Part shown: positions 49,569 through 63,359 of the stretch, one piece after another
Layout of the letters: the number at the start of each line of letters is the position of its first letter
Numbering within the stretch: position 1 is the stretch's first letter
Assembly: GCA_965662295.1 (NCBI GenBank)
Contig: CBFIGS010000008.1
Coordinates: 10,236 to 74,235 of the forward strand
DNA length: 64,000 bases
DNA from: Polaribacter sp.
Lineage (GTDB): Bacteria > Bacteroidota > Bacteroidia > Flavobacteriales > Flavobacteriaceae
Direction: 5' to 3'
Notes under the pieces: model-generated
The model's database searches: none
Seen by the model: only the letters and a program-made list of their open reading frames with translations
Told to the model about the DNA's origin: nothing
Translations under genes and position numbers: made by a program

Positions 49569-50009
49569 TCAAAGAGAACTTCTTAATTCTTGAACAAATT
49601 TTAAGTACTCTTTTTTTCTTGTTTCTTCAAATACATGACGATCGGAAGTAATCGCTTGCTTTATTTCAATTTGAGATTCATTCAAAACGGACTCGTCAAT
49701 AGATTCAATAGAGAACAAATATAAATTCATGATGATCGGTAGGGTTGAAATTCCTTTATCTGTTGCTATGTATTGGGTGCTTTTTTTTGTTCCTAAAGGA
49801 TTGAGTTTTTCAATAAGAAAGGCTTCAAGAAGAGTTTTTAATCTATTTGACAGAATATTAGTGGCTATTTTTTCTTTAGAGGATTTAAATTCTTTAAATC
49901 TAGATTTTTTATGTAGGATAATATCTCTTAATATTAGAAGAGACCATTTATCCCCCAGGAGGTTGATGGATTTTGCAATCGCACAGGTATAATTTCTTTT
50001 CAAACTCAA
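49569..50009 (-). CDS. HxlR-family winged-helix regulator with an N-terminal Cys
   Basis: YTCAIAKSINLLGDKWSLLILRD, RFKEF, IATNILSNRLKTL, YIATDKG. TTG start at 50009 or 50003; -7 box TATATTTG at 50057-50064. Confidence 0.9.
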   Translation of the reverse strand: MSLKRNYTCAIAKSINLLGDKWSLLILRDIILHKKSRFKEFKSSKEKIATNILSNRLKTLLEAFLIEKLNPLGTKKSTQYIATDKGISTLPIIMNLYLFSIESIDESVLNESQIEIKQAITSDRHVFEETRKKEYLKFVQELRSSL

Positions 50010-50152
50010 ATCTTAACAGTATCTATATAAAACGAATTATTTTTTAAAATCTTGTGCAAATATAACAAATACAATTTTTACACCTAATATTTAACAACAA
50101 TGTAATTTAAAAAGAATAAAATATAATAAAATGAATTTTCAATAGATTTAAA

Positions 50153-50186
50153 ATAATTGCTTTTAACAACTAATTTTTTATATTTG
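50153..50186 (+). promoter_or_regulatory. Palindromic site ATAATTG-N7-CAACTAA plus -7 box TATATTTG
   Basis: Site 50153-50173, 5-nt gap, -7 box 50179-50186; lies in the hxlR divergent region. Confidence 0.6.
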
Positions 50187-50227
50187 TTTACATTCATCTA
50201 TTAATCTTTTAATTTAAAACCTTCATT

Positions 50228-51364
50228 ATGAAAAACATTATCACCCTTATTGCTTTAAGCTTTACAATGATTATAAATGCTCAGTGGATTGAAAAAGCTT
50301 CCTGCAATAAAAAAGCTACAATTATTGCAAATCAAGCAGTAGAATATGCATTCAATTTAGAATATATGGCAGCTTTTGGTTCGGCCAAATCAGCCTTATT
50401 ATTGGACGAAAATTGTGGTTGTGCTAAATTAACTCTAGCCTTCATCAGCAGCGCAAATTCAAATTGGGGAAGTAGAGCTAAAAAATTAAAAGAAATTAAC
50501 CCCAATAAACTAACCGCAGAAGAAAAAGCATGGTTTGATCATATGTCAGCCTCTTCTGAAGATCAGAAATCTTTAGAAAAAAGTATGGTTGAAAAATTTC
50601 CAAAAAGCCCGTTAATTAATTTCCTACCTACCTCTATTCGAGATTTTAATTCTTATAAAGTATTTGCTGAAAAATTTCCAGAATACTCTTCATCTGCCTA
50701 TAATATGATGTCATACGGATACATGAATGGAGCCTACGGAGAAAAGGATACAGCACAAGCTATGAAATACGTGAAAATGTCTCAAAATAGCCATGATGGT
50801 CCTAATTCATATGATTCAATGGCAGAGCACTATGCTTCAATGAACGATTATGAAAACGCTTTAAAAACACAACTTAAAGCAATAGATTTTGGGACATTCT
50901 CTTCTCCTTACAGAGCTAATGCATTGCTATATTATGCTAAGAATAACGTTGCTGATATGAGCAAAAACATTACGGAAAAACAACAAGAAATGCAACAAGC
51001 AATTCTGGCTGGCGATTATGAGTCTTATAAAAAGTTTGAACACCCAGAAATTCAAGTATCTACTGGAGACTCAAATTTAAATCCTTTTTACATTTACACA
51101 AAAAAAGATGTAATTAAAGAGGCCCCTTTGACGTGGGAATTCTTTGAGTTGTCTGATATGAAAACTTACTTTTCTCCAAATATGAAAACGGCTGTGATTA
51201 CTTTCGTCGCAGATGGGAAATACACAATAATTAAGACAAATAAGACGGTCTCATATGCAACTAGAGCTTCTTCAACTTGGGTTGAGACTGATGAGGGTTG
51301 GAAAATTTTACATACGTCCTATGCTCCAAGAAAAGGAAAAAATGGTCTTCCAGAAATGAATTAA
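50228..51364 (+). CDS. Exported protein, TPR-like N-terminus + C-terminal NTF2-like (DUF4440) domain
   Basis: Signal peptide; AYNMMSYGY and NSYDSMAEHY helical repeats; C-terminal TAVITF...RASSTWVETDEGWKILHTSY. Confidence 0.65.
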   Translation: MKNIITLIALSFTMIINAQWIEKASCNKKATIIANQAVEYAFNLEYMAAFGSAKSALLLDENCGCAKLTLAFISSANSNWGSRAKKLKEINPNKLTAEEKAWFDHMSASSEDQKSLEKSMVEKFPKSPLINFLPTSIRDFNSYKVFAEKFPEYSSSAYNMMSYGYMNGAYGEKDTAQAMKYVKMSQNSHDGPNSYDSMAEHYASMNDYENALKTQLKAIDFGTFSSPYRANALLYYAKNNVADMSKNITEKQQEMQQAILAGDYESYKKFEHPEIQVSTGDSNLNPFYIYTKKDVIKEAPLTWEFFELSDMKTYFSPNMKTAVITFVADGKYTIIKTNKTVSYATRASSTWVETDEGWKILHTSYAPRKGKNGLPEMN

Positions 51365-51462
51365 AATAATTCGTTTTAGAATGATGACTAAAAACAGAAC
51401 TGATGATGTTCCTAATTAACAGGATCATTGTAACTGAATTTAACTCTTTTAAAATTGAAATA

Positions 51463-51495
51463 AGTGCTCGATTTATATCCAAAAAATCGAGCACT
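51463..51495. terminator. Hairpin between convergent units
   Basis: AGTGCTCGATTT-N9-AAATCGAGCACT. Confidence 0.75.
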
Positions 51496-51528
51496 ATTTA
51501 TCTATTTAAAAATAAAATGTCCTTTAAA

Positions 51529-51669
51529 TTAAAGTGCTTTCCTATCGGAACTTTTGTTTGGATAATTATCTTCTCTTTGCTTACGGTTTGAGTAAATGAT
51601 GTTATATATGGTAAATCCCATATATGTCGCAAATATAACAGCACCCACTATGAAAAATCCTATATTCAT
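51529..51669 (-). CDS. Small single-TM protein (46 aa)
   Basis: MNIGFFIVGAVIFATYMGFTIYNIIYSNRKQREDNYPNKSSDRKAL*; ATG overlaps the upstream TGA (ATGA). Confidence 0.7.
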   Translation of the reverse strand: MNIGFFIVGAVIFATYMGFTIYNIIYSNRKQREDNYPNKSSDRKAL

Positions 51670-51836
51670 TTTTTGTTTCTTCTTTGTCTAATGGCGATTG
51701 CAAATAATAATATTGTTCCCGGCCAATGTGCTGAATATTGAGCCTCTTCATACATTCCAAGTAGTGCATAGGATACAGAATATAATAAACAGCCAAATGC
51801 TAAAATAATTGGATACCAATTGTTGATAAATTTCAT
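51666..51836 (-). CDS. Small two-TM protein (56 aa)
   Basis: MKFINNWYPIILAFGCLLYSVSYALLGMYEEAQYSAHWPGTILLFAIAIRQRRNKK*; two hydrophobic segments and a basic tail. Confidence 0.72.
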   Translation of the reverse strand: MKFINNWYPIILAFGCLLYSVSYALLGMYEEAQYSAHWPGTILLFAIAIRQRRNKK

Positions 51837-52101
51837 ACGATCAAATATTTTTATAAATTCTTGTTCTAATATACGAAGAGAATGCGACGTTTTAAAAAAT
51901 TATTCATTAATTCGATTAAGAGTTTTATCTTTTTAAGAAAAAAAATCTCTACACCCCATACATATGTATCAAAAATATCATGAGACATATAAGCTATAAA
52001 AACCAATGACCAAATGAAATTATTACCCGATAGATACTCATTTCATTTTTTCATATAGCTGTATTTTTTTACTAACTGAGCTAGCAATATATCATAGGGA
52101 T

Positions 52102-52134
52102 AAAAAAATAAACCCTCAACGAGTGAGGGTTTAT
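52102..52134 (-). terminator. Intrinsic terminator after 52165-52662
   Basis: ATAAACCCTCA-acgag-TGAGGGTTTAT with a T-run on the minus strand. Confidence 0.82.
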
Positions 52135-52164
52135 ATGATATCTATAATCTGATAATTTCTACAG

Positions 52165-52662
52165 TTATTCAGTTTCCGAAGAAGCAGATTCCATGAGGAA
52201 ATTTGTTAATCCACCAGCATCAAAATAATCGCCGCCAGCAATAATTTTTCCATCTTTAAAATCCCATGTATGATAAGATGTTATTTCCCAACTTTTACCC
52301 GTTGCAGAGTGTATTCCTGTCCATTTCCCATAGGAACGAACACTTCCGTCAGCCAATTTAGTTTCGGCTGAAACACCTGGCAAATAATTCTCTGGAGTGT
52401 AAACAACTCCTTCCATAGCATCTTGCCAACCTTTTAGATACTGTCCCATTGCTTCTTTTCCAACTTGACTTGCTCCATGAAACGCAGGTTGCCACATTAC
52501 ATCAGGGTGAATCATCTCTAGTTGATCTTCGAAACCTGTCTCTGAAGCTTGCAATTCAAGAAATTTTTTAACTGTTTCTACATTGGCATCATAGGTACTA
52601 TTTCCCTGATCAGAACATGAAATACATACAGTTAGTAGGGTTAATAAAATTAATTTTTTCAT
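52165..52662 (-). CDS. NTF2/SnoaL-like lipoprotein
   Basis: Lipobox CISC; NVETVKKF, HPDVMW, VRSYGKWTG...TGK, WDFKDGKI...DYFD. Confidence 0.82.
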   Translation of the reverse strand: MKKLILLTLLTVCISCSDQGNSTYDANVETVKKFLELQASETGFEDQLEMIHPDVMWQPAFHGASQVGKEAMGQYLKGWQDAMEGVVYTPENYLPGVSAETKLADGSVRSYGKWTGIHSATGKSWEITSYHTWDFKDGKIIAGGDYFDAGGLTNFLMESASSETE

Positions 52663-52687
52663 TTTGTTAAATTTTTAAATTATTTTA

Positions 52688-52721
52688 ACAATATAGTAAA
52701 TTAGTTGTTAAAAAAATTAAT
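52688..52721 (-). promoter_or_regulatory. Palindromic half-site CAACTAA plus -7 variant TATATTGT
   Basis: Minus strand TTTTAACAACTAATTTACTATATTGT, nearly identical to TTTTAACAACTAATTTTTTATATTTGT upstream of 50228. Confidence 0.6.
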
Positions 52722-52726
52722 TACAT

Positions 52727-52754
52727 AAAAAACCCTCAATGATTGAGGGTTTTA
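52727..52754 (-). terminator. Intrinsic terminator after 52782-53711
   Basis: AAAACCCTCAA-tga-TTGAGGGTTTT; near-copy of the 52102 terminator. Confidence 0.85.
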
Positions 52755-52781
52755 TATTCGGTTCAAAAGAATTAAATCCTA

Positions 52782-53711
52782 TTACTTAGGAAGCTGTGAT
52801 GCATTAAAATAATATTGCTCATTAATAATTTTCCCTTCCTTATTTACCACTATCTGAGAATGGTGAACAGCCTCTTTTATCGCATTTGATTTTTTGTTTT
52901 TTACAGTTATATCCCACCATGATATGATTGTTTTGTTATCTGACCCTTCATATTCGAATAAATCCGGATATCCACTTTCACTCACATTAAGAATCTCATA
53001 TTGTTTGTAAAATTCTTTAAGACTTTCCATTTCTTCTTCAACTGATTTAGAGGCATCCTTCTCTGAATTCATAACGTCTAATATGGTCGCATTTTCAGAA
53101 TACAAAGCCTTCATTGATTCCATATCTCCTATTTCTATATATGCGTATAATAATCTCGCTTTTGAAATCATTGGATGGTCTTTGTAGATCGTTCCATTTT
53201 TTGTAGTACCCCAAGCATCGTAAGATTTTTTCCACTTTAGTTGACTATCTGATACCGATAAACCACTAATTTTTTTACCATCTTTACTAAAAAAGAAGAT
53301 TGAATTTCTTGGTATCTGAAATTTATAACCTGTGTTTTTATCAAATCCTTTCAATATTTGATAGGTATATACATTTAAATCGTCTTTCCCATATTCCATT
53401 GCATCAGAATAAGCAGACCCTCTGTCTTTAATTTGTAATCCAATAACATTTTTACTCAAATAATTAGATCTTCTGAGCAATCTATTTAGGGTTAATGGCT
53501 TTGGTTCCATAGAATTCATTTGCCACCATTTAAAATCTTCAGTTACCATAGATTTCAATTTATCTGCGTCTCCTGCAACAAAAGCATCAGTAAATTCATT
53601 GACTAATTCAATCCCAGGGTGCTGGTCATATATTCTACCATTCTTATGTTTTTTCTGTGCAGAGATTGACATCGTTGATAACATCAATACGCCTAATACT
53701 AATTTTTTCAT
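52782..53711 (-). CDS. Exported tandem NTF2/SnoaL-like two-domain protein
   Basis: Signal peptide; two repeats starting GRIYDQHP and GTIYKDHP; AFVAGDADKL, LYSENA, GYPD, C-terminal EGKIINEQYYFN. Confidence 0.75.
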   Translation of the reverse strand: MKKLVLGVLMLSTMSISAQKKHKNGRIYDQHPGIELVNEFTDAFVAGDADKLKSMVTEDFKWWQMNSMEPKPLTLNRLLRRSNYLSKNVIGLQIKDRGSAYSDAMEYGKDDLNVYTYQILKGFDKNTGYKFQIPRNSIFFFSKDGKKISGLSVSDSQLKWKKSYDAWGTTKNGTIYKDHPMISKARLLYAYIEIGDMESMKALYSENATILDVMNSEKDASKSVEEEMESLKEFYKQYEILNVSESGYPDLFEYEGSDNKTIISWWDITVKNKKSNAIKEAVHHSQIVVNKEGKIINEQYYFNASQLPK

Positions 53712-53747
53712 TGTTTTTAAATTTAAGATTATTTATTATTGTTGAAG

Positions 53748-53780
53748 TAAATATAATAATTAATTTTAAAAAGCAACTAA
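53748..53780 (-). promoter_or_regulatory. Site TTAGTTG-N7-AAATTAA plus -7 variant TATATTTA
   Basis: Site 53760-53780, 4-nt gap, -7 variant 53748-53755. Confidence 0.55.
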
Positions 53781-53900
53781 CTATCAAAATTTAAAACTGT
53801 TACAATGGTATTCTTTTTGAGTCAATTTAACAAAGAGAAAGTAGACCTCAAATTGCATTCAAAAATCTTATCATGGCAATTTCGATGTACTTTTCATCGT

Positions 53901-55157
53901 TTATTTTTTATCTGTAAATCTTAATTTTTCTTTGATATCTTGGAAAGGTTGTTCTATACAGACATACATGAGAGTAGAGCCGATTATAATGGCAAATACT
54001 GAAATTAAACTATTTGTTAAAACAATCTGTGTATCAGACAAACTTCCAAGAGCATAGTCATTAAATTTTGGGAAAAACCAAAACATGAACATCTCGTGAA
54101 AAAGATACGCAGAATAAGAAATCTGAGAAATGGGATAAAAAAACTTCATAGAGAGAAAGCGATTCAAGGGCCTTACTATTTTTGATTCTGAATACAAACA
54201 GCAAAAAATCATAAACAATACGGCATATGAAAAAATTTCACGGTGAATAATTTCATAAATTCTCGGTATGTTGTTATGATACCCATCAAAAATGGAACTT
54301 TTAAGATTTGTCCATTGTCCTAAAGATATACTTGATATCAAAATAAAAATTACAAAGCTGAGGCAAAAAAGAAAATTAGTCACTTGCTGTTTATTGTCAA
54401 AAAATGATTTTATTTGATTCTGATGGTATACATTAATGTATGCTCCAATAACTCCACAAAGTAATCCACCATATCTTAAATGTGTAAGCATATAGTACTC
54501 CCAAAACCAATTCTGCCAATCTTCATCTAAAAAAGACGACTTGAATGGCACTTTAAAATCATGAATATTCACTGAATAATGATAGGTTAATGAAATCGTT
54601 AGCAAGGTCAAAATAACAAATGGGATACGCTTTCTCTTAAAAAAGGGAAATATAAAAGCAATGAGAAAAGGAATGACAATATAAAATTGTTCTTCAATTG
54701 CTAAAGACCAGGTCCAACCCATATAAGATCCTCTCACATAATTATTTATATATAACAAATTAGACCATGCGGTTGTCCATCGATCTGCACCCTTACCCTC
54801 AAGAAAATATAAAGCGATGATCATAGAAAAAACATAGACTGGTAGCAGACGTAAAATACGTCTGGTATAAAACTTTTTAAAATTGAGACGGTTAGACCTT
54901 TTAAACTCTTTAAATAAAATTGACCCTATCAAAAAACCACTGATCACAAAAAATAAATCGACCCCTAAATCTCCCTTAGAGATCCATATTAAAAGAGGAT
55001 TTTCAAATATTTTTTCTCCCACAGAAGTGAAGTCATTGTACTGAAATAGCCAAGCATGAAAAATAATAACCCATAAAACAGCGATGGCTCTAATACCATC
55101 GATAGGTTTATAATTTTGAGAAGGTCTTGAAAATAATCTTGAAAAATAACTTGCCAT
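53901..55157 (-). CDS. Acyltransferase-3 (OafA/YrhL-like) membrane O-acyltransferase
   Basis: IDGIRAIAVLWVIIFH, GVDLFFVISGFLI, FYTRRILRLLP, WSLAIEEQFY, ISYSAYLFH, IEQPF. Start at ATG 55157. Confidence 0.92.
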   Translation of the reverse strand: MASYFSRLFSRPSQNYKPIDGIRAIAVLWVIIFHAWLFQYNDFTSVGEKIFENPLLIWISKGDLGVDLFFVISGFLIGSILFKEFKRSNRLNFKKFYTRRILRLLPVYVFSMIIALYFLEGKGADRWTTAWSNLLYINNYVRGSYMGWTWSLAIEEQFYIVIPFLIAFIFPFFKRKRIPFVILTLLTISLTYHYSVNIHDFKVPFKSSFLDEDWQNWFWEYYMLTHLRYGGLLCGVIGAYINVYHQNQIKSFFDNKQQVTNFLFCLSFVIFILISSISLGQWTNLKSSIFDGYHNNIPRIYEIIHREIFSYAVLFMIFCCLYSESKIVRPLNRFLSMKFFYPISQISYSAYLFHEMFMFWFFPKFNDYALGSLSDTQIVLTNSLISVFAIIIGSTLMYVCIEQPFQDIKEKLRFTDKK

Positions 55158-55185
55158 AAAAGAATTGATATAAAAAATAAAAAAC

Positions 55186-55219
55186 CAAATATAGATAATA
55201 ACTTGCAACAAACAACTTA
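55186..55219 (-). promoter_or_regulatory. Site TAAGTTG-N7-CAAGTTA plus -7 box TATATTTG
   Basis: Site 55199-55219, 5-nt gap, -7 box 55186-55193. Confidence 0.6.
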
Positions 55220-55290
55220 TTTTAAAAAAGATGCTATTCAGGGAATAAAAACAGTTTTTTAAAAAGTGTTCATAAATATATTTTACAATA

Positions 55291-55318
55291 AAAAGCCCAT
55301 CAAATATGATGGGCTTTT
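55291..55318 (-). terminator. Intrinsic terminator after 55335-55826
   Basis: AAAAGCCCATCA-aata-TGATGGGCTTTT. Confidence 0.85.
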
Positions 55319-55334
55319 TATTGTATCTGTTATT

Positions 55335-55826
55335 TTACCAGTCGGCTTTCCATTCGCGTATCGTATGAACAATATCATCTTCGCCAATAAAAAACTTATC
55401 GATGACACGTTCTTTTTCAATATTTCCATTTTTATTAAATCTTGTTTCTACAGCCCCCACTTGAACGATACTTCCAGACCAAGATTCAACAGTGTAAGGC
55501 AGGTAGTATTTTATGACCTTTTGAATCGAATCGTATTGAGAAAAATAATCTTTTAACATGTTTACATCCATTTTAATGGCTGATTTCATATTATGAGGAT
55601 AGTAGGTTAACGAATCATTAATTGAAGAAAACACCCCTTCTGCATCTAATGACACATGGCTTGATAACATTTTTTTGACAATCGCTACATCAGCATCTGA
55701 TCCTATTGAATATTTCACCCCTGTATTTACCCACTCACCGGCTTTTCGATCAACTTCAACCTCTTTAACTGAATTGCTACAAGAAATGAATACCGAAACA
55801 ACTAATAATAATGTTATTGTTTTCAT
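55335..55826 (-). CDS. Hypothetical lipoprotein, possibly NTF2-like
   Basis: Lipobox FISC; helix (VAIVKKMLSS) followed by beta-rich part ending DKFFIGEDDIV; fold call is weak. Confidence 0.55.
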   Translation of the reverse strand: MKTITLLLVVSVFISCSNSVKEVEVDRKAGEWVNTGVKYSIGSDADVAIVKKMLSSHVSLDAEGVFSSINDSLTYYPHNMKSAIKMDVNMLKDYFSQYDSIQKVIKYYLPYTVESWSGSIVQVGAVETRFNKNGNIEKERVIDKFFIGEDDIVHTIREWKADW

Positions 55827-55972
55827 TGTTTTATTTTTTAAATGAATTTTAAATGTAAAATAAAAATCTGAGGAAAAAAAAATGCAAAAAATTAGTTGTA
55901 AAAAGTAATTATTTTTATCTATTTTGGCATTCTAAAAAAATTTCACCTTACACAAGTCACAATATTTATATT

Positions 55973-57373
55973 ATGAAAAAAACAGCTTTTAAAATCTTTT
56001 TTTTATCAATTTCAATGATCATAATTTCATGCAACAAAGATGATAATTATAATGACCCAGATTCAAATGATTCCGCAGAGATTCCAACCGTATACGAAGG
56101 ATGGACCCTACAATGGAATGATGAATTTAATGAAGCGCAGATAAATAGGAATAACTGGACCTATGAGTTAGGTGATGGAGCAGATTATGGATTGCCTGTT
56201 GGTTGGGGTAATGATGAAAAACAAATTTATACATCAAATAGTGAAAATGCAAGTATCGTTGAAGATGAAGGTGCTTCCGTTTTAGCGATAACAGCACTTG
56301 AAGATAATTCAGGGGGCTATACTTCTGCAAAACTAACCACTCAAAATCTTTTTAGCATGCGCTTTGGTCGTTTAGAAATAAAAGCTAAAATGCCAAAAGG
56401 ACAGGGTTTATGGCCTGCCATTTGGATGTTAGGAGACAACAAAGATCAAATTGGCTGGCCAGGATGCGGGGAAATAGATATGGTAGAAGTCCTAGGGAAT
56501 GAGCCCTCAAAAGAGTATTCAACTATTCATTTTACAAACGATGAAAATAAACATGGTGAAATACAAAGGAGTTCTATCAAATCTCCAGACTTTAGCTCTT
56601 CTTATCATGTTTTTAGTATGGATTGGACTCCTAATTCAATAACTTTTAGTGTAGATGGCAATATGCTGAATACAATTGCGATTGAAGATGACATGAAAGA
56701 ATTTCTTCGCAGTTACTTTTTAATTCTGAATGTTGCTGTAGGAGGCTATTGGCCTGGAGAACCGGATGCAACAACTGTTTTTCCTCAAACCATGTATACA
56801 GATTATATAAGAGTTTACTCTAAGAATGGTTTTCAGGCCCCAGATGCTCCTGTTTTGAATATTGAAGAAGAAACTGTGGGACAACTTATAGAACCTACCC
56901 TAGCAGATCATGCCGTTCAAGACGGATTTACAGACCTTGGGACAATGGAGGTAATTGTATATGGCCCAGGAGCACCAGAAGTAGCCTCCTCTGACAGTGC
57001 AATTGACGGAGATGCTAGTTTGGCGTTCAATTTCCCCGGTGAAAATTGGGGTGGTGGATACCTTCTGCTAGAGAACTCTAAAGATATGAATGCCTTTACA
57101 GCACTTAAATTTTCACTAAAAAAACCAGATTCTTTTGTGAATTGTGAGATAAAACTAGAAACTATTAGAACTGATGCTGTTGTTTATTTGGCTGATTATA
57201 CTGGAACTGAACTATCTGATGGATTTGTAGAGTATACGATTCCGCTGGCTGATTTTACAGATTTAGACCTTTCGGGATTGAAAATTCCATTTTCTATGTG
57301 GAATCCTCAGGATTCAAACAATGCATTTGTCAACGCAACAGTGCTAATTGATAACGTCTACTTCTCGATGTAA
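55973..57373 (+). CDS. GH16 lipoprotein with a C-terminal beta-sandwich extension
   Basis: Lipobox IISC-NKDD; WNDEFN, WGNDEKQIY, YTSAKL, GLWPAIWMLG, catalytic GEIDMVE, LILNVAVGGYWPG. Confidence 0.92.
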   Translation: MKKTAFKIFFLSISMIIISCNKDDNYNDPDSNDSAEIPTVYEGWTLQWNDEFNEAQINRNNWTYELGDGADYGLPVGWGNDEKQIYTSNSENASIVEDEGASVLAITALEDNSGGYTSAKLTTQNLFSMRFGRLEIKAKMPKGQGLWPAIWMLGDNKDQIGWPGCGEIDMVEVLGNEPSKEYSTIHFTNDENKHGEIQRSSIKSPDFSSSYHVFSMDWTPNSITFSVDGNMLNTIAIEDDMKEFLRSYFLILNVAVGGYWPGEPDATTVFPQTMYTDYIRVYSKNGFQAPDAPVLNIEEETVGQLIEPTLADHAVQDGFTDLGTMEVIVYGPGAPEVASSDSAIDGDASLAFNFPGENWGGGYLLLENSKDMNAFTALKFSLKKPDSFVNCEIKLETIRTDAVVYLADYTGTELSDGFVEYTIPLADFTDLDLSGLKIPFSMWNPQDSNNAFVNATVLIDNVYFSM

Positions 57374-57430
57374 CTATAGCAAATCTTGTGATTGATTAAA
57401 TCACTGACGTAATTAACGACAATTCAAATG

Positions 57431-57464
57431 AAAATAGGGTCTCTTTAAGACACCCTATTTTTTT
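57431..57464 (+). terminator. Intrinsic terminator after GH16
   Basis: AAAATAGGG...CCCTATTTT followed by a T-run. Confidence 0.7.
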
Positions 57465-57650
57465 AGTCCCTATTTTTGAATGCCTATTCTAAAACCCTTG
57501 GGATTTGTTTACCTACTTTAATATGGTTTTGATAAAATCCAGTTAAGAATATATGATTGGTAACCTTATTTGTAGGGTAACTCCAGGTTAGAGGGTTCAG
57601 AAAACATAATTGATCTTGATAAAAAAAGAAGGTCTTAAATTTGAACAGAA

Positions 57651-58994
57651 TTATATGAATTTATCGTAAAAATCCTTATTAAAAATAACCGATTTATATC
57701 TAGCATCAAAAGAAGATTTGACAATAATTAAAATATCATGATTAGAACCCAATAGCCATTTAATCTGGGTGTTAATTTTATCAATGTACTGATTTCGTAT
57801 GCGTTCGTTTTGAATTTTGCTTAAATGATTTTTACTAACAAGAGCATATATTTCTGTAAATTCCATTTCTCTTGTAATCGCTCTTTTAAGAATAGTAAGA
57901 GCCATAACATCCAATTCTATAAACTTAGATCTATACTTCAACCCATTCTCTAATATAACCAACGAGTTCCTTGATTTTATATATCTATAAATTCCAAAAA
58001 AAGCGATGCATAAAAAAACAAGTCCAAAACTAATTAATAAATAAATGACCGTCATTTCTGTATCATATAAAGCTGTAATTTGTACAATCTTATTTGTAAG
58101 CTCTTTAAAAGCTACTTTTTTCAACACACTACTCTTATTAATATAATAAAGTTGATCATTGAAAATGACAGGATCGATATCATTATTAAATAAATGTAAA
58201 ATAGGATTAATTTTATATTCAGTGAGTGTATTTTGTTCAATATTCACCTTAAATAAGGTGGCTTTACCATCCAAAATATAACTATGCTTACCATCAGTAA
58301 AACTTCTAAAATCGCGTCCTGAAAAATTAGCTTTTAATTTCCCTAAAAGATTCCAATTTTTACTTTGAAAATTAAAAGACCAAACTTCATTATTTGAAAC
58401 CTCATTTCTTGTTCCGAGATGAGTCACATAAAATCCCCCAAAAAAATAAAAAAAATTCTCTTTATTAATGGCAAAATGATTACTAACTGTAGTAGCTTTC
58501 TTTGAAGTTAGAGATATAGGATATATCTCCCATTCCTTTGTACTTTTATCTAAATAAGTAAAAAAATTAGACTGTGTCCAATACCCATAACCACCATGTC
58601 TCATGAGGGTATCATTTTTTATGAATATAGAACTTCCTATCAAGAAATTTTTAATATCAGAATTATCAACTCTTAGGAGACTGTCTTGTTCTGTTAATTG
58701 AAAAACTTCACCTCCTTTTTGATTTAGAAAAAGTAATCTATTTTGTTTGATAACTGGGAGAAGGGAAATCCAAGTATTTGGCTTTACGATTTTCTTTGTT
58801 TCAAGAATCTCTAAACTGTTTGCATCTAATCGTGTTAAAGATTCACTAGTAGCAAATAAAATCTGATTTGTTAGCGAGTCTACGATTAAACGTTCAGTGA
58901 TTTCAGGAATTGCCCTTTGTTGGCTAAAAGAGGTGAAAGGAATTAAAAATATAAAAATAAATAGGGAATATAACCCCTTCGAAAAATACATCAT
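57651..58994 (-). CDS. Hypothetical membrane-anchored protein (Kelch-like periplasmic part, TM, small cytoplasmic domain)
   Basis: Signal peptide; HGGYG, FFGG, VWSFNF Kelch-like elements; one TM near aa 315-340; basic C-terminal domain. Confidence 0.55.
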   Translation of the reverse strand: MMYFSKGLYSLFIFIFLIPFTSFSQQRAIPEITERLIVDSLTNQILFATSESLTRLDANSLEILETKKIVKPNTWISLLPVIKQNRLLFLNQKGGEVFQLTEQDSLLRVDNSDIKNFLIGSSIFIKNDTLMRHGGYGYWTQSNFFTYLDKSTKEWEIYPISLTSKKATTVSNHFAINKENFFYFFGGFYVTHLGTRNEVSNNEVWSFNFQSKNWNLLGKLKANFSGRDFRSFTDGKHSYILDGKATLFKVNIEQNTLTEYKINPILHLFNNDIDPVIFNDQLYYINKSSVLKKVAFKELTNKIVQITALYDTEMTVIYLLISFGLVFLCIAFFGIYRYIKSRNSLVILENGLKYRSKFIELDVMALTILKRAITREMEFTEIYALVSKNHLSKIQNERIRNQYIDKINTQIKWLLGSNHDILIIVKSSFDARYKSVIFNKDFYDKFI

Positions 58995-59339
58995 TGAATG
59001 AAAATAAGTATAATAATTTTAAATTTAACCTAGTTACAAAGTGCAGGAATGACCAAATTGAATAAAAGAAATCCAAAATAATATAATTCTCCAAAAGAAT
59101 TCAACTTAGCTTTGGCAAAAAGTTGGATCATCCTTTTTGGTGTGTTGCTATCAGCATCCTCTTCGTTAAACAATTGATTCCTATATTCAAACGCTATTTT
59201 ATTGAAATAGTTTCCTTCTCAAATATAATAAAAAAGATGGTTTAGATATTGATGTCCATAAGGCTTTTTTCTAAAAATTCTTGTCTTTTCTATCTTAACT
59301 TCTTCTGTCGTCTAGAAAGCACTAGAAAAATTATTATGG

Positions 59340-59385
59340 TGTAACGTTTGCGTATCATTAAAATAAATGTTACGTTTGCGTTACA
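59340..59385 (+). promoter_or_regulatory. Promoter with twin 18-bp operators
   Basis: TGTAACG-TTTG-CGTATCA (59340-59357) and TGTTACG-TTTG-CGTTACA (59368-59385), covering -33 TTTG (59347-59350) and -7 TACGTTTG (59371-59378). Confidence 0.75.
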
Positions 59386-59402
59386 TTAATAAAAATTAAA
59401 TT

Positions 59403-59798
59403 ATGGATCAAAATATTATTATACCCATTTTTGGAATGCTAACTGGAATCATAATTCCACTCGCTGTATTTTTCTGGCTTTATAAAGAAAGTAAGGACAA
59501 GAATAAAACTATAATTGAGGTTTCCAAACATTTAGATGACAAATCAAAATTAGAAGAATTACTAAGTATTTTTGATGAAAGAAAAAAAGAGCCAATAGAT
59601 TATCGTAGAAACGGAGTCATCACAATTTTTGTGGGTATGGGTTTATATCTTCTTGGAGAATTTGCAATTGGAAATGTTCTAAAGGGTGTTGGAGCTTTGG
59701 TTGGGTTTATAGGAATAGGAACTATGATCGCTGGTTATCTCTATCCAAATACAGGAAAAGAATTGACCAATGCTGTTGAAGAATTTGAAAAGAAATAA
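59403..59798 (+). CDS. DUF6249-like membrane protein
   Basis: N-terminal TM, EPIDYRRNGVITIFVGMGL, two C-terminal TMs. Confidence 0.72.
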   Translation: MDQNIIIPIFGMLTGIIIPLAVFFWLYKESKDKNKTIIEVSKHLDDKSKLEELLSIFDERKKEPIDYRRNGVITIFVGMGLYLLGEFAIGNVLKGVGALVGFIGIGTMIAGYLYPNTGKELTNAVEEFEKK

Positions 59799-59800
59799 TT

Positions 59801-60013
59801 ATGGGTAAAAACCATAAAAAACTCCTCAATAATTTAGAGACCCTGAGAAAAGCCGCTGGTTTAACACAGCAAGAAATGTCTGTTAGAGCCGAGGTGTCAA
59901 GAAAGAGCATTAATGCCATTGAAAATGGAGTGTATGTTCCCTCCACGGTATTGGCTTTGAAAATTTCTAAAACATTGAATTGCAATGTGGAAGATTTATT
60001 CAAATTACCCTAA
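59801..60013 (+). CDS. XRE-family HTH transcriptional regulator
   Basis: LRKAAGLTQQEMS...VSRKSINAIENGVYVPSTVLALKIS...VEDLF. Confidence 0.93.
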   Translation: MGKNHKKLLNNLETLRKAAGLTQQEMSVRAEVSRKSINAIENGVYVPSTVLALKISKTLNCNVEDLFKLP

Positions 60014-60035
60014 ATTATTTTTTATGTTAAGAGAT

Positions 60036-60068
60036 AAAACAGTCATACGCTTTTAGTATGACTGTTTT
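60036..60068. terminator. Bidirectional terminator
   Basis: AAAACAGTCATAC-N7-GTATGACTGTTTT. Confidence 0.85.
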
Positions 60069-60140
60069 CTTATTTTTTTTGATTCCTTGTAAAAATCCAA
60101 TCTAGACCCTTTCTCAAAAACTTTTTCACAGTCATAAAAT

Positions 60141-60518
60141 TTACTTAACTGAGAAAAACTTTCTATAAATATGTTTGTCTAACATCTTTTCATATTTTGG
60201 AGTGAAATAGTTTACCCAAAAATCATCTATTTCTTCTGAATGCGCATTGTTATATTCTGCATCATTAGACCATGTACTTAACCACATGTAGCGATGTTCT
60301 TTGGCTTCGTCTTCTGAACTTACTTGGTAAACCCTGTATTTATTAGCTCCAAATCCATTTTTTTCATATATATTATTTGCCCGATCTAGGTCTTTTTGAA
60401 ATTCTTCAATTGTTACTCCACTTGGTAAATCAAAAACATGTAAACTAATACGTTCTTTGGATTGTGAGAAAACTATTGAAGAGATTAAGAATGCGAAAAG
60501 ATAGAGTTGTTTTTTCAT
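60141..60518 (-). CDS. Small exported hypothetical protein (possibly dimeric alpha-beta barrel)
   Basis: Signal peptide ending VFSQ; YRVYQV, YMWLSTW; -7 box TATATTTG at 60540-60547. Confidence 0.6.
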   Translation of the reverse strand: MKKQLYLFAFLISSIVFSQSKERISLHVFDLPSGVTIEEFQKDLDRANNIYEKNGFGANKYRVYQVSSEDEAKEHRYMWLSTWSNDAEYNNAHSEEIDDFWVNYFTPKYEKMLDKHIYRKFFSVK

Positions 60519-60763
60519 AATTAGGTAGTTTTAATATTCAAATATAAGAAATGTTCGTTTAATTTTTTAATTGCCTCGAATCAAAAGAAATAAAAGGAGA
60601 AGATATTAATAACCTGCCTCCAATAACACCAACAAATAGCAAAATACAGTGACTTTGTATAAAGTAATCGCTACCCTACCTTCGGAGTTTATAAGTTATT
60701 AAACTAGAAGAATGTAACATGCCTATGATCAAGAAACCAAGCAACAAAATACAAACGTTGGTC

Positions 60764-61657
60764 TTAGTTGATTACTTTTTCATATACCCTTACCCAATCA
60801 ACATACATGTGTTGTGGGAAATTAGTGGTATCATCCGGCCTACCTGCATAAGTTCCTCCTACAGCTATATTAAAAAGAATAAAAAACTCTTTGTGAAGCT
60901 CTGTTAATTCATCTGAAGAAATATCCATCTCTGCAAATTGTTTTCCGTCTACAAACCAAATAAGTTCATTTTCATTCCATTCTAATTCAAATACATGGAA
61001 CTCATCTGAAAATTTGCCTTTCTCTAATTGAAAAGACTCTGCTCCCATGGATGCATGTGAGCCTGAAGCATCTGCGTAATGAACATTCGATTCAATAAGA
61101 CCATCGTCTTTAGTGCCATACAATTCTAAAATATCAATTTCTCCACACTGAGGCCAAGGCGTGTCACCCCCATTTTCGTCTATATTCGCTCCGAGCATCC
61201 AAAAGGCTGGCCACATACCCATGCCTTGAGGAAGCTTTATACGTGCAGCAATTTTTCCATATTTCCAAGATTGCTTGTTGGCTGTGTGTAATCGTGCAGA
61301 GGTATATTGATTTAAACCATGTTTATCACTTTCGTGTATTGCCCTTATAACTAGGCAATTATTTTCTACATATGCATTTTGACCACTGTTTGTATAACGC
61401 TGCCACTCCCCATTAAATCTTCCAGCTTTCACTACTTGTGCTGTCCAATTATTAGAGTCTATAGTTTCTTTTTCAAATTCATCTGCCCATTTTAGTTTCC
61501 AGTGTGTATCCTTCATTTTATTTATGCTATCATAAGAAATTGTTGATATCTCTATTTTCTCATCACTAAAATGAGTTATTTTTTCCTTCTTTTTAAACGA
61601 ATATATTAAGACTAAAATTGTAGCTAAAATTAGGAATATGGGGAATACTTTTTTCAT
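60764..61657 (-). CDS. GH16 glycoside hydrolase (probable beta-1,3-glucanase)
   Basis: WADEFE, NGEWQRY, YTSARL, GMWPAFWMLG, catalytic GEIDILE, FNIAVGG, YVDWVRVY. Confidence 0.93.
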   Translation of the reverse strand: MKKVFPIFLILATILVLIYSFKKKEKITHFSDEKIEISTISYDSINKMKDTHWKLKWADEFEKETIDSNNWTAQVVKAGRFNGEWQRYTNSGQNAYVENNCLVIRAIHESDKHGLNQYTSARLHTANKQSWKYGKIAARIKLPQGMGMWPAFWMLGANIDENGGDTPWPQCGEIDILELYGTKDDGLIESNVHYADASGSHASMGAESFQLEKGKFSDEFHVFELEWNENELIWFVDGKQFAEMDISSDELTELHKEFFILFNIAVGGTYAGRPDDTTNFPQHMYVDWVRVYEKVIN

Positions 61658-61839
61658 TTAGTTATTATTTTTATGTGATGCCTATCGTTTCGGATAAGAT
61701 CTCCTAGCAAACCAACAGGTGCTGTGCAATATACACATTTTGTATACTATATTATTATTTTAATAGGTAGTTCCTCGAAAAATTGACGGTTCGTTCTAGT
61801 GATGAAGATTTTGAAATTATCATCTATTGGATAAACAAA

Positions 61840-62262
61840 TTACATCCTAAGATTATTGATAATATTGGGGTTAATTTTCTGTAAATCTTCAGAGAATTTC
61901 ACTTTGTGTTTTGGTGAAATTATAATTTCCTCAAACTTACCATATGTAATTTCAATCCTATCAAACGAAGCTGCAGGAGACGAAATCATATTATAAGACT
62001 TTGAAATTTTTTTAATTTCCATGATATTTATCGAATTATGACGAAAAAAACCACATGTAATGTGTAGCCTCTCATTATCAATTGTATAAATTGTATTGAA
62101 AAACATATGTAAAATAAATCCATATAAAATGATCAAAGCTACGGTCATTAAAACCATATTACTTTTAAAATCATCGTATATATAGCTAGGAATTAGTGGT
62201 CCAAAAAAAACTATAAATACAATAATCAATAAGGGATATGAGACTTTAGAATAATAAGTCAT
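61840..62262 (-). CDS. Membrane protein with bacterial PH domain (bPH_5/YyaB-like)
   Basis: Two TMs, then YTIDNERLHI and SSPAASFDRIEITY, IIISP. Confidence 0.75.
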   Translation of the reverse strand: MTYYSKVSYPLLIIVFIVFFGPLIPSYIYDDFKSNMVLMTVALIILYGFILHMFFNTIYTIDNERLHITCGFFRHNSINIMEIKKISKSYNMISSPAASFDRIEITYGKFEEIIISPKHKVKFSEDLQKINPNIINNLRM

Positions 62263-62290
62263 TTAATTAAAAGTTACACTTAAAGATATA

Positions 62291-62330
62291 AATAAACGGC
62301 TACACTTCAAAAAAAGTATAACCGTTTATT
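62291..62330 (-). terminator. Probable terminator after 62388-63287
   Basis: AATAAACGG...CCGTTTATT outer stem with imperfect inner pairing. Confidence 0.55.
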
Positions 62331-62387
62331 ATATTAGGAAAGTTCTCTTTTGAAATATCGAACTTAAAAATTGGTAGAGGAGGGTGC

Positions 62388-63287
62388 TTAATTAGCCATA
62401 TAAATAACTTCTCTGGTCACTTTACCTTCACTGTTAAAGTCGTGACTCATATGAAGATATTCACGAGTTTTTTCTCCTGTTTCTGCATTTGTATTGTTTA
62501 CCCACCACCAAGACAGCACCACCCATTGGCCTTTGTCTCTTGAATAATAAATAGCATCCGGATATCCTGACTGTTCTAGTTTACGAACCCTGTTTGCTGC
62601 TACAGCCTGATTCCATGTAGCAGTTCGTTCTTCTAGATTTAATTTTCCGTCCACACCAAGTCGGTAAAAGGCTGCATCTTCTGAAAAGTAAGAAGCCAAT
62701 TCCGAGATTTCTCCAGCTTCGAAATGTGCAACCATTTTATTCAATTTATCAATAATTGGGTGTTCATCAAACACACGACCGTTTCTATGCCATCCAAAAG
62801 ATGCTTGAATTTGCTCTCCTGCAGACTCTCTATCAAAGTGGCTCATTGACATCGTGATTTTCCCATCTTCAGTCACATAATTATTCGAGTGAATATTTAC
62901 TTTAATAGCCTTACCACTGGTTTTGTTTACAGCAGAGAATACCATCCAGTCCATCGTCCAAGCTCCTTTATCATCATCTTCATATTTAATAATGTCTGGT
63001 GTTGCGCCTTTCATGACAGTATATTTTATATCGCTAAAATTTTCTTGCCACCAGAGCATGTTACTTACTTCTTGATCTATATTATTAGCTTCCTCGTCAC
63101 CAGGCCCCCAAAATTTAGCTCCCTCCGCATACAATGCTCTAAGTTCAGCTTCCGTTCCTGATTCCCATATTTGGTAAGATTTTGTAATTACATCATAAGC
63201 TGGATGCTCTGAATAAGTTACCCCTGATTTTACTTGACTCCACCCTAATAATGGAATGAGCGCTAAGGCCAGTACTAATTTCTTCAT
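62388..63287 (-). CDS. Exported tandem NTF2/SnoaL-like two-domain protein (paralog of 52782-53711)
   Basis: Signal peptide; repeats GVTYSEHP and GRVFDEHP; PDIIKY and GYPDAIYY; SWW; EGKVTRE. Confidence 0.75.
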   Translation of the reverse strand: MKKLVLALALIPLLGWSQVKSGVTYSEHPAYDVITKSYQIWESGTEAELRALYAEGAKFWGPGDEEANNIDQEVSNMLWWQENFSDIKYTVMKGATPDIIKYEDDDKGAWTMDWMVFSAVNKTSGKAIKVNIHSNNYVTEDGKITMSMSHFDRESAGEQIQASFGWHRNGRVFDEHPIIDKLNKMVAHFEAGEISELASYFSEDAAFYRLGVDGKLNLEERTATWNQAVAANRVRKLEQSGYPDAIYYSRDKGQWVVLSWWWVNNTNAETGEKTREYLHMSHDFNSEGKVTREVIYMAN

Positions 63288-63323
63288 TTTAATTGTATTT
63301 AAAGTTAATTATTTAATTCTCTC

Positions 63324-63359
63324 ACAATATACTATTTATTAATTTTAAAATACAACTAA
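63324..63359 (-). promoter_or_regulatory. Site TTAGTTG-N7-AAATTAA plus -7 variant TATATTGT
   Basis: Site 63339-63359, 7-nt gap, -7 variant 63324-63331; shares AGTTAGTTGnnTTTTAAAATTAAT with the 53711 upstream region. Confidence 0.55.

Follow-up and report, generated by a model that had tools for sequence, protein, structure and literature searches.

A conserved palindrome across promoters of exported NTF2-fold protein genes in Polaribacter is a candidate operator of an HxlR-family regulator

The window analyzed here, a stretch of 64,000 nucleotides (nt) of Polaribacter sp. DNA (C8:10236–74235 of a 2.13-Mb genome with 38 contigs and 32.8% GC), contains between 49.5 and 63.4 kb a gene for an HxlR-family regulator (hxlR), several genes for exported proteins of the NTF2 type, a gene for a membrane acyltransferase and two genes for GH16 glycoside hydrolases. 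A degenerate 21-bp palindrome recurs upstream of these genes (Table 1), and an earlier note on this DNA had interpreted it as the mark of an HxlR-controlled regulon. Genes were called as longest open reading frames in this analysis. hxlR has no nearby in-frame ATG at its 5′ end and apparently starts with TTG 50009. The acyltransferase gene most likely starts with ATG 55157 (MASYFS...) rather than TTG 55211, which places the palindrome at 55199 and its TATATTTG box ahead of the gene instead of across the start codon.

The six 21-mers listed in the earlier note all have the letters and coordinates given there, and the spacing claimed there for five of them, 4–7 nt between the end of the site and a −7-like box, holds at every one of the six (Table 1). 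The −7 box of flavobacterial σA promoters, TAnnTTTG, lies at −12 to −5 (PMC9723704). Genome-wide, we found 574 TAnnTTTG boxes upstream of genes, mostly 10–40 nt from start codons, and the spacing between TTG and TAnnTTTG peaked at 19–20 nt (32–33 cases versus a background of about 10). At the window's sites, the TTG of the distal arm is separated from the −7 box by 18–21 nt, as in a Bacteroidota σA promoter; no TTG −33 element is present in the promoter of the 165-aa gene. The distal-arm TTG thus represents the −33 element; the palindrome extends from approximately −38 to −18. CAAnTAA does not occur in the spacer of ordinary TTG-N19-TAnnTTTG promoters of this genome, indicating that the proximal (right) arm is not a promoter element, and an explanation of the palindrome as a generic promoter element was rejected on this ground. 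The operator at 55892, situated between two divergent genes, most likely serves the 163-aa gene.

The consensus put forward in the earlier note, TTAGTTG-N7-CAACTAA, has no copies with zero or one mismatch in this genome and 16 copies with two mismatches, three of them within the 14-kb stretch. As it had been derived from these very sites, such a count is circular, and an independent test was therefore conducted. A matrix built from 12 orthologous sites in other genomes was scanned over the whole genome, of which 10% is intergenic. Its best intergenic matches were 50153 (20.0 bits), 53760 (16.6), C14:3405 (15.6), C5:160587 (15.6), C23:6251 (14.6), C29:5692 (14.3), C11:43809 (14.1) and 63339 (13.3), and the weaker window sites scored 11.9 (55892), 9.9 (55199) and 3.9 bits (52701). 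Enrichment over shuffled sequence, which the earlier note had proposed as a check, was indeed seen: seven intergenic matches reached at least 14 bits, whereas shuffling all intergenic DNA at the dinucleotide level leads one to expect 1.2 (n = 200; at most six such matches), and 15 reached at least 11.5 bits, compared to 5.4 in the shuffles. With a refined matrix of 46 sites, none of them from this genome, 50153 ranked first (20.2 bits); 53760 (19.6 bits; rank 2–3 among intergenic matches) and 63339 (18.6 bits) also fell within the top five intergenic matches, followed by 55199 (13.9 bits; rank about 11) and 55892 (12.2 bits; rank about 15), while 52701 scored 2.1 bits. Seven matches reached at least 16 bits genome-wide with this matrix, six of them intergenic. 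The window thus contains three strong sites, two moderate sites and, at 52701, a half-site only. The latter, whose second arm had been suspected to be poor from the outset, has one good arm and was rejected as a full operator with its scores of 3.9 and 2.1 bits. The earlier consensus stands as a palindrome and is amended in its letters to TTA[G/A]TTG-[C/T]N5[G/A]-CAA[C/T]TAA.

Table 1. Genes and palindromic sites of the locus in window coordinates. Operator sequences are given on the gene strand where one is assigned; distances run from the end of the site to the best −7-like box.
Feature	Position	Strand	Details
hxlR	49569–50009	-	146-aa HxlR/DUF24-family winged-helix regulator, PF01638
Operator 1, 378-aa gene promoter	50153–50173	+	ATAATTG-CTTTTAA-CAACTAA; 5 nt before −7 box; 144 nt from hxlR start
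−7 box TATATTTG of 378-aa gene	50179–50186	+	TTG 50157–50159 as −33 element, 19-nt spacer
378-aa exported protein gene (target 1)	50228–51364	+	DUF4440; divergent from hxlR
165-aa SnoaL_2 lipoprotein gene	52165–52662	-	
Half-site only, ahead of 165-aa gene	52701–52721	-	CAACTAA, then TATATTGT after 5 nt
309-aa double-NTF2 secreted protein gene	52782–53711	-	Sub-threshold SnoaL_2/DUF4440 matches
Operator, 309-aa gene	53760–53780	-	TTAGTTG-CTTTTTA-AAATTAA; 4 nt before TATATTTA (53748–53755)
Acyl_transf_3 membrane acyltransferase gene	53901–55157	-	PF01757, E=1.4e-32
Operator, acyltransferase gene	55199–55219	-	TAAGTTG-TTTGTTG-CAAGTTA; 5 nt before TATATTTG (55186–55193)
163-aa NTF2-fold lipoprotein gene	55335–55826	-	No Pfam match
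Operator between 163-aa gene and GH16 gene	55892–55912	.	TTAGTTG-TAAAAAG-TAATTAT; 5 nt to TGCATTTT (163-aa gene)
GH16 gene	55973–57373	+	Divergent from 163-aa gene
299-aa double-NTF2 secreted protein gene	62388–63287	-	Sub-threshold SnoaL_2/DUF4440 matches
Operator, 299-aa gene	63339–63359	-	TTAGTTG-TATTTTA-AAATTAA; 7 nt before TATATTGT (63324–63331)

Phylogenetic footprinting, also proposed in the earlier note, showed that the element is conserved. Orthologs of the 378-aa protein were found at 35 loci in more than 30 other genomes, the closest public record stemming from a Polaribacter metagenome-assembled genome from Helgoland (95% identity). TTAnTTG-N7-CAAnTAA lies 4–8 nt before a −7 box in every ortholog with enough upstream sequence, and no conservation between lineages is visible in the intergenic DNA around it. 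Two genomes exhibit perfect 10-nt arms (AAATTAGTTG-CTAATTA-CAACTAATTT at locus L016 and TTAGTTG-TGTATCG-CAACTAA at L017). For the other targets, 20 genomes carrying an hxlR ortholog were searched. Sites of 15–22 bits precede homologs of the 299-aa protein (27–81% identity) by 55–82 nt at seven of eight loci, and homologs of the 163-aa protein have sites of 13–21 bits at −74 to −79, each followed by a −7 box, at four of nine loci. Matches of at least 11.5 bits were found for 8/29 homologs of the 165-aa gene, many of which lie within operons. Three loci related to the 309-aa gene were found, and two of three close orthologs carry the site. The single acyltransferase ortholog (60% identity; genome G046) is preceded by TTAATTGTAAAAAACAACTAA (19.5 bits) and then TACATTTG, supporting the acyltransferase gene as a predicted target of the element. 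In other genomes, near-perfect palindromes also lie ahead of further secreted proteins; copies within coding regions appear to be chance occurrences. Based on the scans and these comparisons, the 21-bp palindrome appears to be a genuine, evolutionarily conserved operator at the promoters of several secreted NTF2-fold genes.

One of the palindromes in other genomes, at positions 1968–1988 of contig C28 of G065 (L081), is the perfect TTAGTTGCATTATGCAACTAA, situated 6 nt before TAGATTTG. It precedes the gene of an exported 136-aa protein of the CMD/AhpD family (PF02627, 55.5 bits) with a CAYC motif (CxxC), the sole redox-type target seen.

The earlier note had described the targets as exported NTF2-type proteins, and this assignment is borne out by Pfam matches above cut-off for two of them and by structure comparison for a third. 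The 378-aa protein matches PF14534 (DUF4440; 29.3 bits, cut-off 25.2) and the 165-aa protein SnoaL_2 (34.3 bits, cut-off 27); the 299-aa and 309-aa proteins, with 26.9 and 23.2 bits, stay below the Pfam cut-off of 27. In an AlphaFold2 (AF2) model (predicted local distance difference test [pLDDT] score 89.7), the 378-aa protein comprises an N-terminal, all-helical (TPR-like) repeat domain and a C-terminal NTF2 domain, which Foldseek aligns with CaMKII-hub and NTF2 structures at a template modeling (TM) score of about 0.75. The model of the 163-aa protein (pLDDT 86.5) matches limonene-epoxide hydrolase (LEH), ketosteroid isomerase (KSI) and SnoaL2 structures with a probability of 1.00 and a TM score of about 0.7, and the sequence aligns to the SnoaL_2 family in profile comparison with 79–97% probability; no Pfam model covers this family, and all its public homologs are unnamed or annotated as "hypothetical protein". 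Signal peptides or lipoboxes are present on all NTF2-type targets. Sequence identity to the structural matches is 8–16%, and the NTF2 proteins may equally be enzymes or binders.

Sites outside the window are associated with similar proteins. The C5:160587 site lies between a second hxlR paralog (hxlR2; 58% identical) and a divergent gene for a 298-aa lipoprotein with weak DUF4440/SnoaL_2 matches; the latter is barely significantly related to the window's 299-aa protein in BLASTP, so that their paralogy is at the level of the fold only. The C23:6251 site is found ahead of a 174-aa lipoprotein gene with five weak NTF2-clan matches, and the C29:5692 site ahead of the gene of a 173-aa lipoprotein that is distantly related to the 163-aa family; this gene is followed by a 294-aa open frame that represents the genome's sole SnoaL_2-like match outside the window. 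Genome-wide, SnoaL_2/DUF4440 matches are restricted to the loci described here, apart from a weak DUF4440 match on C1 (E=0.06). On the hxlR2 side, a TATATTTT box directly adjoins the C5 palindrome, and the paralog may thus be autoregulated. In the same intergenic region (C5:160501–160661; L011), three half-sites are arranged as CAACTAA-N14-TTAGTTT-N7-AAACTAA. The site at C11:43809–43829 belongs to a 228/229-aa secreted family without a Pfam match, which carries one of the strongest sites (19.9 bits); a secreted family of 244, 248 and 229 residues located behind near-perfect palindromes in other genomes is homologous to this C11 228-aa protein.

The regulator encoded at the locus is a member of the HxlR/DUF24 family by its domain (PF01638, residues 17–101, 44.7 bits versus a curated cut-off of 20.8) and its cysteine, and its locus contains the palindrome. 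Its nearest solved structures are 4gcv, PA1607 (2f2e), Bacillus subtilis HxlR (7bze) and YodB (5hs7), and all matches in the PDB are HxlR/DUF24 proteins. HxlR contains a single cysteine, C9 (TCAIA), and the recognition helix SKEKIATNILSNRLKTL; both are invariant in 27 orthologs and paralogs, in which C9 is usually the sole cysteine. C9, located where helix α1 begins, aligns with the N-terminal cysteine found in 4gcv, 2f2e and B. subtilis HxlR, and the N-terminal cysteine is the sensing residue in YodB, CatR, HypR and HxlR (PMC3351151, PMC7835342). The Cys-x-Lys pair associated with formaldehyde-type sensing is absent from HxlR and all its orthologs (C-A-I-A); with Ile at Cys+2 throughout, this type of sensing was rejected. 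Thiol or electrophile sensing by HxlR may be envisaged solely from the invariant cysteine, which is common to the whole DUF24/HxlR family.

Upstream of two hxlR orthologs that lack a divergent 378-aa partner (G013/G019; L004/L003), a different perfect palindrome, TTAACATATGTTAA, is conserved at a distance of about 90 nt; the operator matrix does not pick it up. A second operator near hxlR's own promoter, considered in the form of AATTACATTGTTGTTAA here and TTAACATATGTTAA in G013 and G019, was discarded, as it is not conserved across orthologous intergenic regions.

Several observations connect the palindrome to hxlR. hxlR is found at most 1.5 kb upstream of the 378-aa ortholog at 16 of the 35 loci, 15 of which were checked as divergent pairs, and in all 15 hxlR/378-aa intergenic regions examined the palindrome is the sole strong matrix site. 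At one of these loci (L021), the whole intergenic region comprises 100 nt with the palindrome at its center. In Winogradskyella (L098), site, 229-aa gene and hxlR follow each other in one operon, and in G046 one contig carries both the acyltransferase ortholog and, 2 kb away, an hxlR paralog. Among eight genomes in which hxlR is not adjacent, four carry an hxlR ortholog elsewhere (64–74% identity). Phyletic patterns agree: of 121 Polaribacter genomes, the 17 with an hxlR ortholog contain 0.90 palindromes with at most one mismatch per Mb, compared to 0.24 per Mb in the 104 without (3.8-fold; binomial p=4e-9), whereas a reversed control pattern occurs at 0.80 and 0.64 per Mb, respectively, which is not a significant difference. 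The 299-aa family is likewise present in 8/20 genomes with and 1/80 genomes without hxlR (Fisher p=5e-6), and its sole homolog in a genome lacking hxlR has no site. The palindrome is thus tied to this HxlR subfamily by physical linkage of three kinds, by phyletic co-occurrence and by the second paralog next to another site. We consider this a strong genomic association, although not proof.

Based on these observations, we suggest that the palindrome is probably the operator of a small, dispersed regulon that is bound by an HxlR dimer keeping the genes off. A dimer of the window's HxlR and/or of the C5 paralog would bind TTA[G/A]TTG-N7-CAA[C/T]TAA, cover approximately −38 to −18, block RNA polymerase and keep the gene set silent. 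As the palindrome includes the −33 element and takes up the spacer, a bound dimeric winged helix-turn-helix (wHTH) protein should exclude σA, which makes repression the likeliest mode. In the window, the regulon would include the 378-aa, 309-aa, 299-aa and 163-aa NTF2-type proteins and the membrane acyltransferase, and the C23, C29, C11 and C5 sites would control further small secreted proteins outside it. The genes would be released once a ligand binds or the one invariant N-terminal cysteine is modified. Of the regulon proposed in the earlier note, the conserved element in a repressor position and its association with hxlR and NTF2 targets are thus retained, and the 52701 copy is not.

A number of points weigh against this proposal. 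Four Arcticimaribacter-type genomes keep TTAATTG-N7-CAATTAA at the 378-aa ortholog, with a best HxlR homolog that is merely 38–47% identical. Genomes with hxlR form a clade of small genomes, so that the phyletic correlation is not phylogenetically independent, and the refined matrix is biased, its later sites having been found using the first matrix. Autoregulation is not evident in this genome, the operator being situated about 75 nt upstream of the −7 box that belongs to hxlR itself. Nor does repression follow from family membership, given that B. subtilis HxlR and HypR are activators. Finally, the window's targets include no classical electrophile-detoxifying oxidoreductase; the top sites precede genes for exported NTF2-fold proteins, the acyltransferase and small secreted proteins, unlike in a regulon of electrophile- or quinone-detoxifying oxidoreductases.

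Three other explanations were weighed against repression by HxlR. The palindrome might be the operator of another transcription factor that was co-inherited with the accessory gene set, with HxlR binding elsewhere or having other targets. The Arcticimaribacter-type genomes, in which the palindrome is kept although a close HxlR ortholog is lacking, and the G013/G019 orthologs, which lack a divergent partner and have the different palindrome TTAACATATGTTAA upstream, would fit such a scenario, and co-inherited genes are not separable by phyletic correlation. However, hxlR alone among regulator genes recurs beside the sites, in three arrangements and with two paralogs; the distant HxlR homologs of the Arcticimaribacter-type genomes share the recognition helix I-A-[TS]-N-I-L-[ST]-[ND]-R-L-K; and palindromes are under-represented in genomes lacking hxlR relative to the control pattern. 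We therefore regard another factor as unlikely. That HxlR binds the palindrome as an activator or dual regulator, like B. subtilis HxlR or HypR, appears distinctly unlikely: while characterized family members include activators (PMC3351151, PMC7835342), and imperfect −7/−33 boxes at several targets (TGCATTTT at the 163-aa gene; no TTG at the 165-aa gene) might need help, at nearly all promoters the site extends over the −33 element and the spacer, where a bound protein would compete with σA contacts, and YodB/QsrR-type repressors of the same family act from such a position.

Very improbable, in our view, is the absence of any dedicated regulator, with promoters copied along with paralogous NTF2 genes and supplemented by the −33 TTG and AT-rich chance matches. 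Some copying would account for targets that are paralog families and for the promoters of the 50228 and 55826 genes sharing about 30 of 37 nt, and the left arm does contain a generic −33 TTG. In addition, raw counts of the idealized pattern in pooled Polaribacter genomes do not exceed those of the reversed control, the genus-level signal emerging only upon a split by hxlR presence or with a matrix limited to intergenic DNA. Yet the site is kept upstream of homologs that are only 25–28% identical and also stands before the genes of the unrelated acyltransferase, the CMD/AhpD-like protein, a 125-aa membrane protein and the 228-aa family. Furthermore, its conservation is two-fold symmetric and perfect palindromes exist, the right arm is absent from generic promoters, and the shuffle test also speaks against chance.

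A more specific reading of the HxlR-repressed regulon concerns its purpose. A one-Cys HxlR that de-represses exported NTF2-fold proteins and an envelope acyltransferase, and in relatives an AhpD-like thiol protein, might control an extracytoplasmic electrophile-defense regulon directed against reactive hydrophobic algal compounds, an idea that we consider doubtful at present. Such compounds (polyunsaturated aldehydes, quinones or halogenated metabolites) would be bound or transformed in the periplasm or at the cell surface. The regulon would be specific to small-genome, bloom-associated Flavobacteriaceae and differ in this location from the cytoplasmic detoxification regulons of the HxlR family. 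Handling of algal reactive metabolites by the NTF2 proteins is speculation, to which the exported AhpD-like target found in a relative lends mild encouragement.

Two further features of the region were noted. The decamer ACGTTTGCGT occurs twice, at 59344 and 59372, 28 nt apart, framed by an inverted TGTAACG...CGTTACA (59340–59386). The pair lies directly upstream of a gene for a 131-aa membrane protein (59403–59798), which is followed by a gene for a 70-aa XRE-type helix-turn-helix protein (59801–60013); repeats and XRE-type gene look like a separate small operator/regulator pair. Two paralogous proteins of about 445 residues that resemble each other in the N-terminal region and both have a late transmembrane segment are encoded at 57651–58994 and at C21:2339–3667 of the same genome (G000), and a 12.4-bit matrix match is found 85 nt upstream of the C21 copy.

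Gene regulation in marine Flavobacteriaceae, a group of ecological importance with few genetic studies, is little mapped beyond polysaccharide utilization loci, and to our knowledge no HxlR/DUF24 regulon has been defined in Bacteroidota. In the literature we found no description of an HxlR or NTF2 regulon in Polaribacter or Flavobacteriia, nor of this operator. The present analysis offers a precise candidate operator, TTARTTG-N7-CAAYTAA over the −33 element, a likely one-Cys regulator and about ten putatively co-regulated genes, carried by uncultured bloom-associated Polaribacter and relatives. Since the inducer of one regulator would indicate a substrate class, the function of abundant "hypothetical" lipoproteins becomes approachable. 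From the genomic evidence, we consider this a well-supported prediction of a new regulon for a known class of regulator, whose control logic would be conventional.

YodB and CatR from Bacillus subtilis and QsrR from Staphylococcus aureus are thiol-based DUF24/HxlR repressors of quinone and diamide detoxification genes. The present HxlR resembles them as a small PF01638 protein, predicted to be a dimeric wHTH, with a conserved N-terminal cysteine at the start of helix α1 and a palindromic operator that overlaps a handful of dispersed promoters, one of them belonging to a neighboring gene. Its single cysteine is reminiscent of the 1-Cys S-alkylation mode of YodB-type regulators. In contrast, similarity to the YodB sequence is weak (E=1.9e-4), and HxlR has a C-terminal extension of about 35 residues. 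Instead of cytoplasmic azo-, nitro- or quinone reductases or dioxygenases, it would control a membrane acyltransferase and NTF2-fold proteins that are exported, and the system involves a Bacteroidota −33/−7 promoter with the −33 TTG embedded in a half-site. PA1607 (2f2e) and 4gcv (146–168 aa), which match HxlR best in sequence of all solved structures (E about 1e-9), share the length class, the C-terminal extension and a C-[PA]-[IV]-A motif with HxlR, but are structural-genomics proteins from Proteobacteria without assigned function or operator.

The family namesake, B. subtilis HxlR, is encoded divergently from its target, as is the HxlR described here. It is a formaldehyde-activated activator of hxlAB that senses via Cys11 and gains DNA binding through a Cys11–Lys13 methylene bridge within FNCEKEL (PMC7835342). 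The corresponding TCAIAK in the present HxlR contains no C-x-K pair, and the position of the site argues for repression. Closest in gene content are divergent HxlR-SnoaL_2 pairs reported from 66 oral-bacterial genomes with intergenic regions of 73–226 bp, for which the authors propose local regulatory coupling while stating that neither promoter control nor a motif or ligand is known (bioRxiv 10.64898/2026.10.17.759843). The domain pairing, the divergent orientation and the short intergenic region are the same in both cases. While the oral pairs are defined by adjacency only, the marine Flavobacteriaceae present a conserved putative operator at about ten dispersed promoters, with exported NTF2 proteins as predicted targets, and thereby provide a motif-level hypothesis for the oral HxlR-SnoaL_2 pairing as well.

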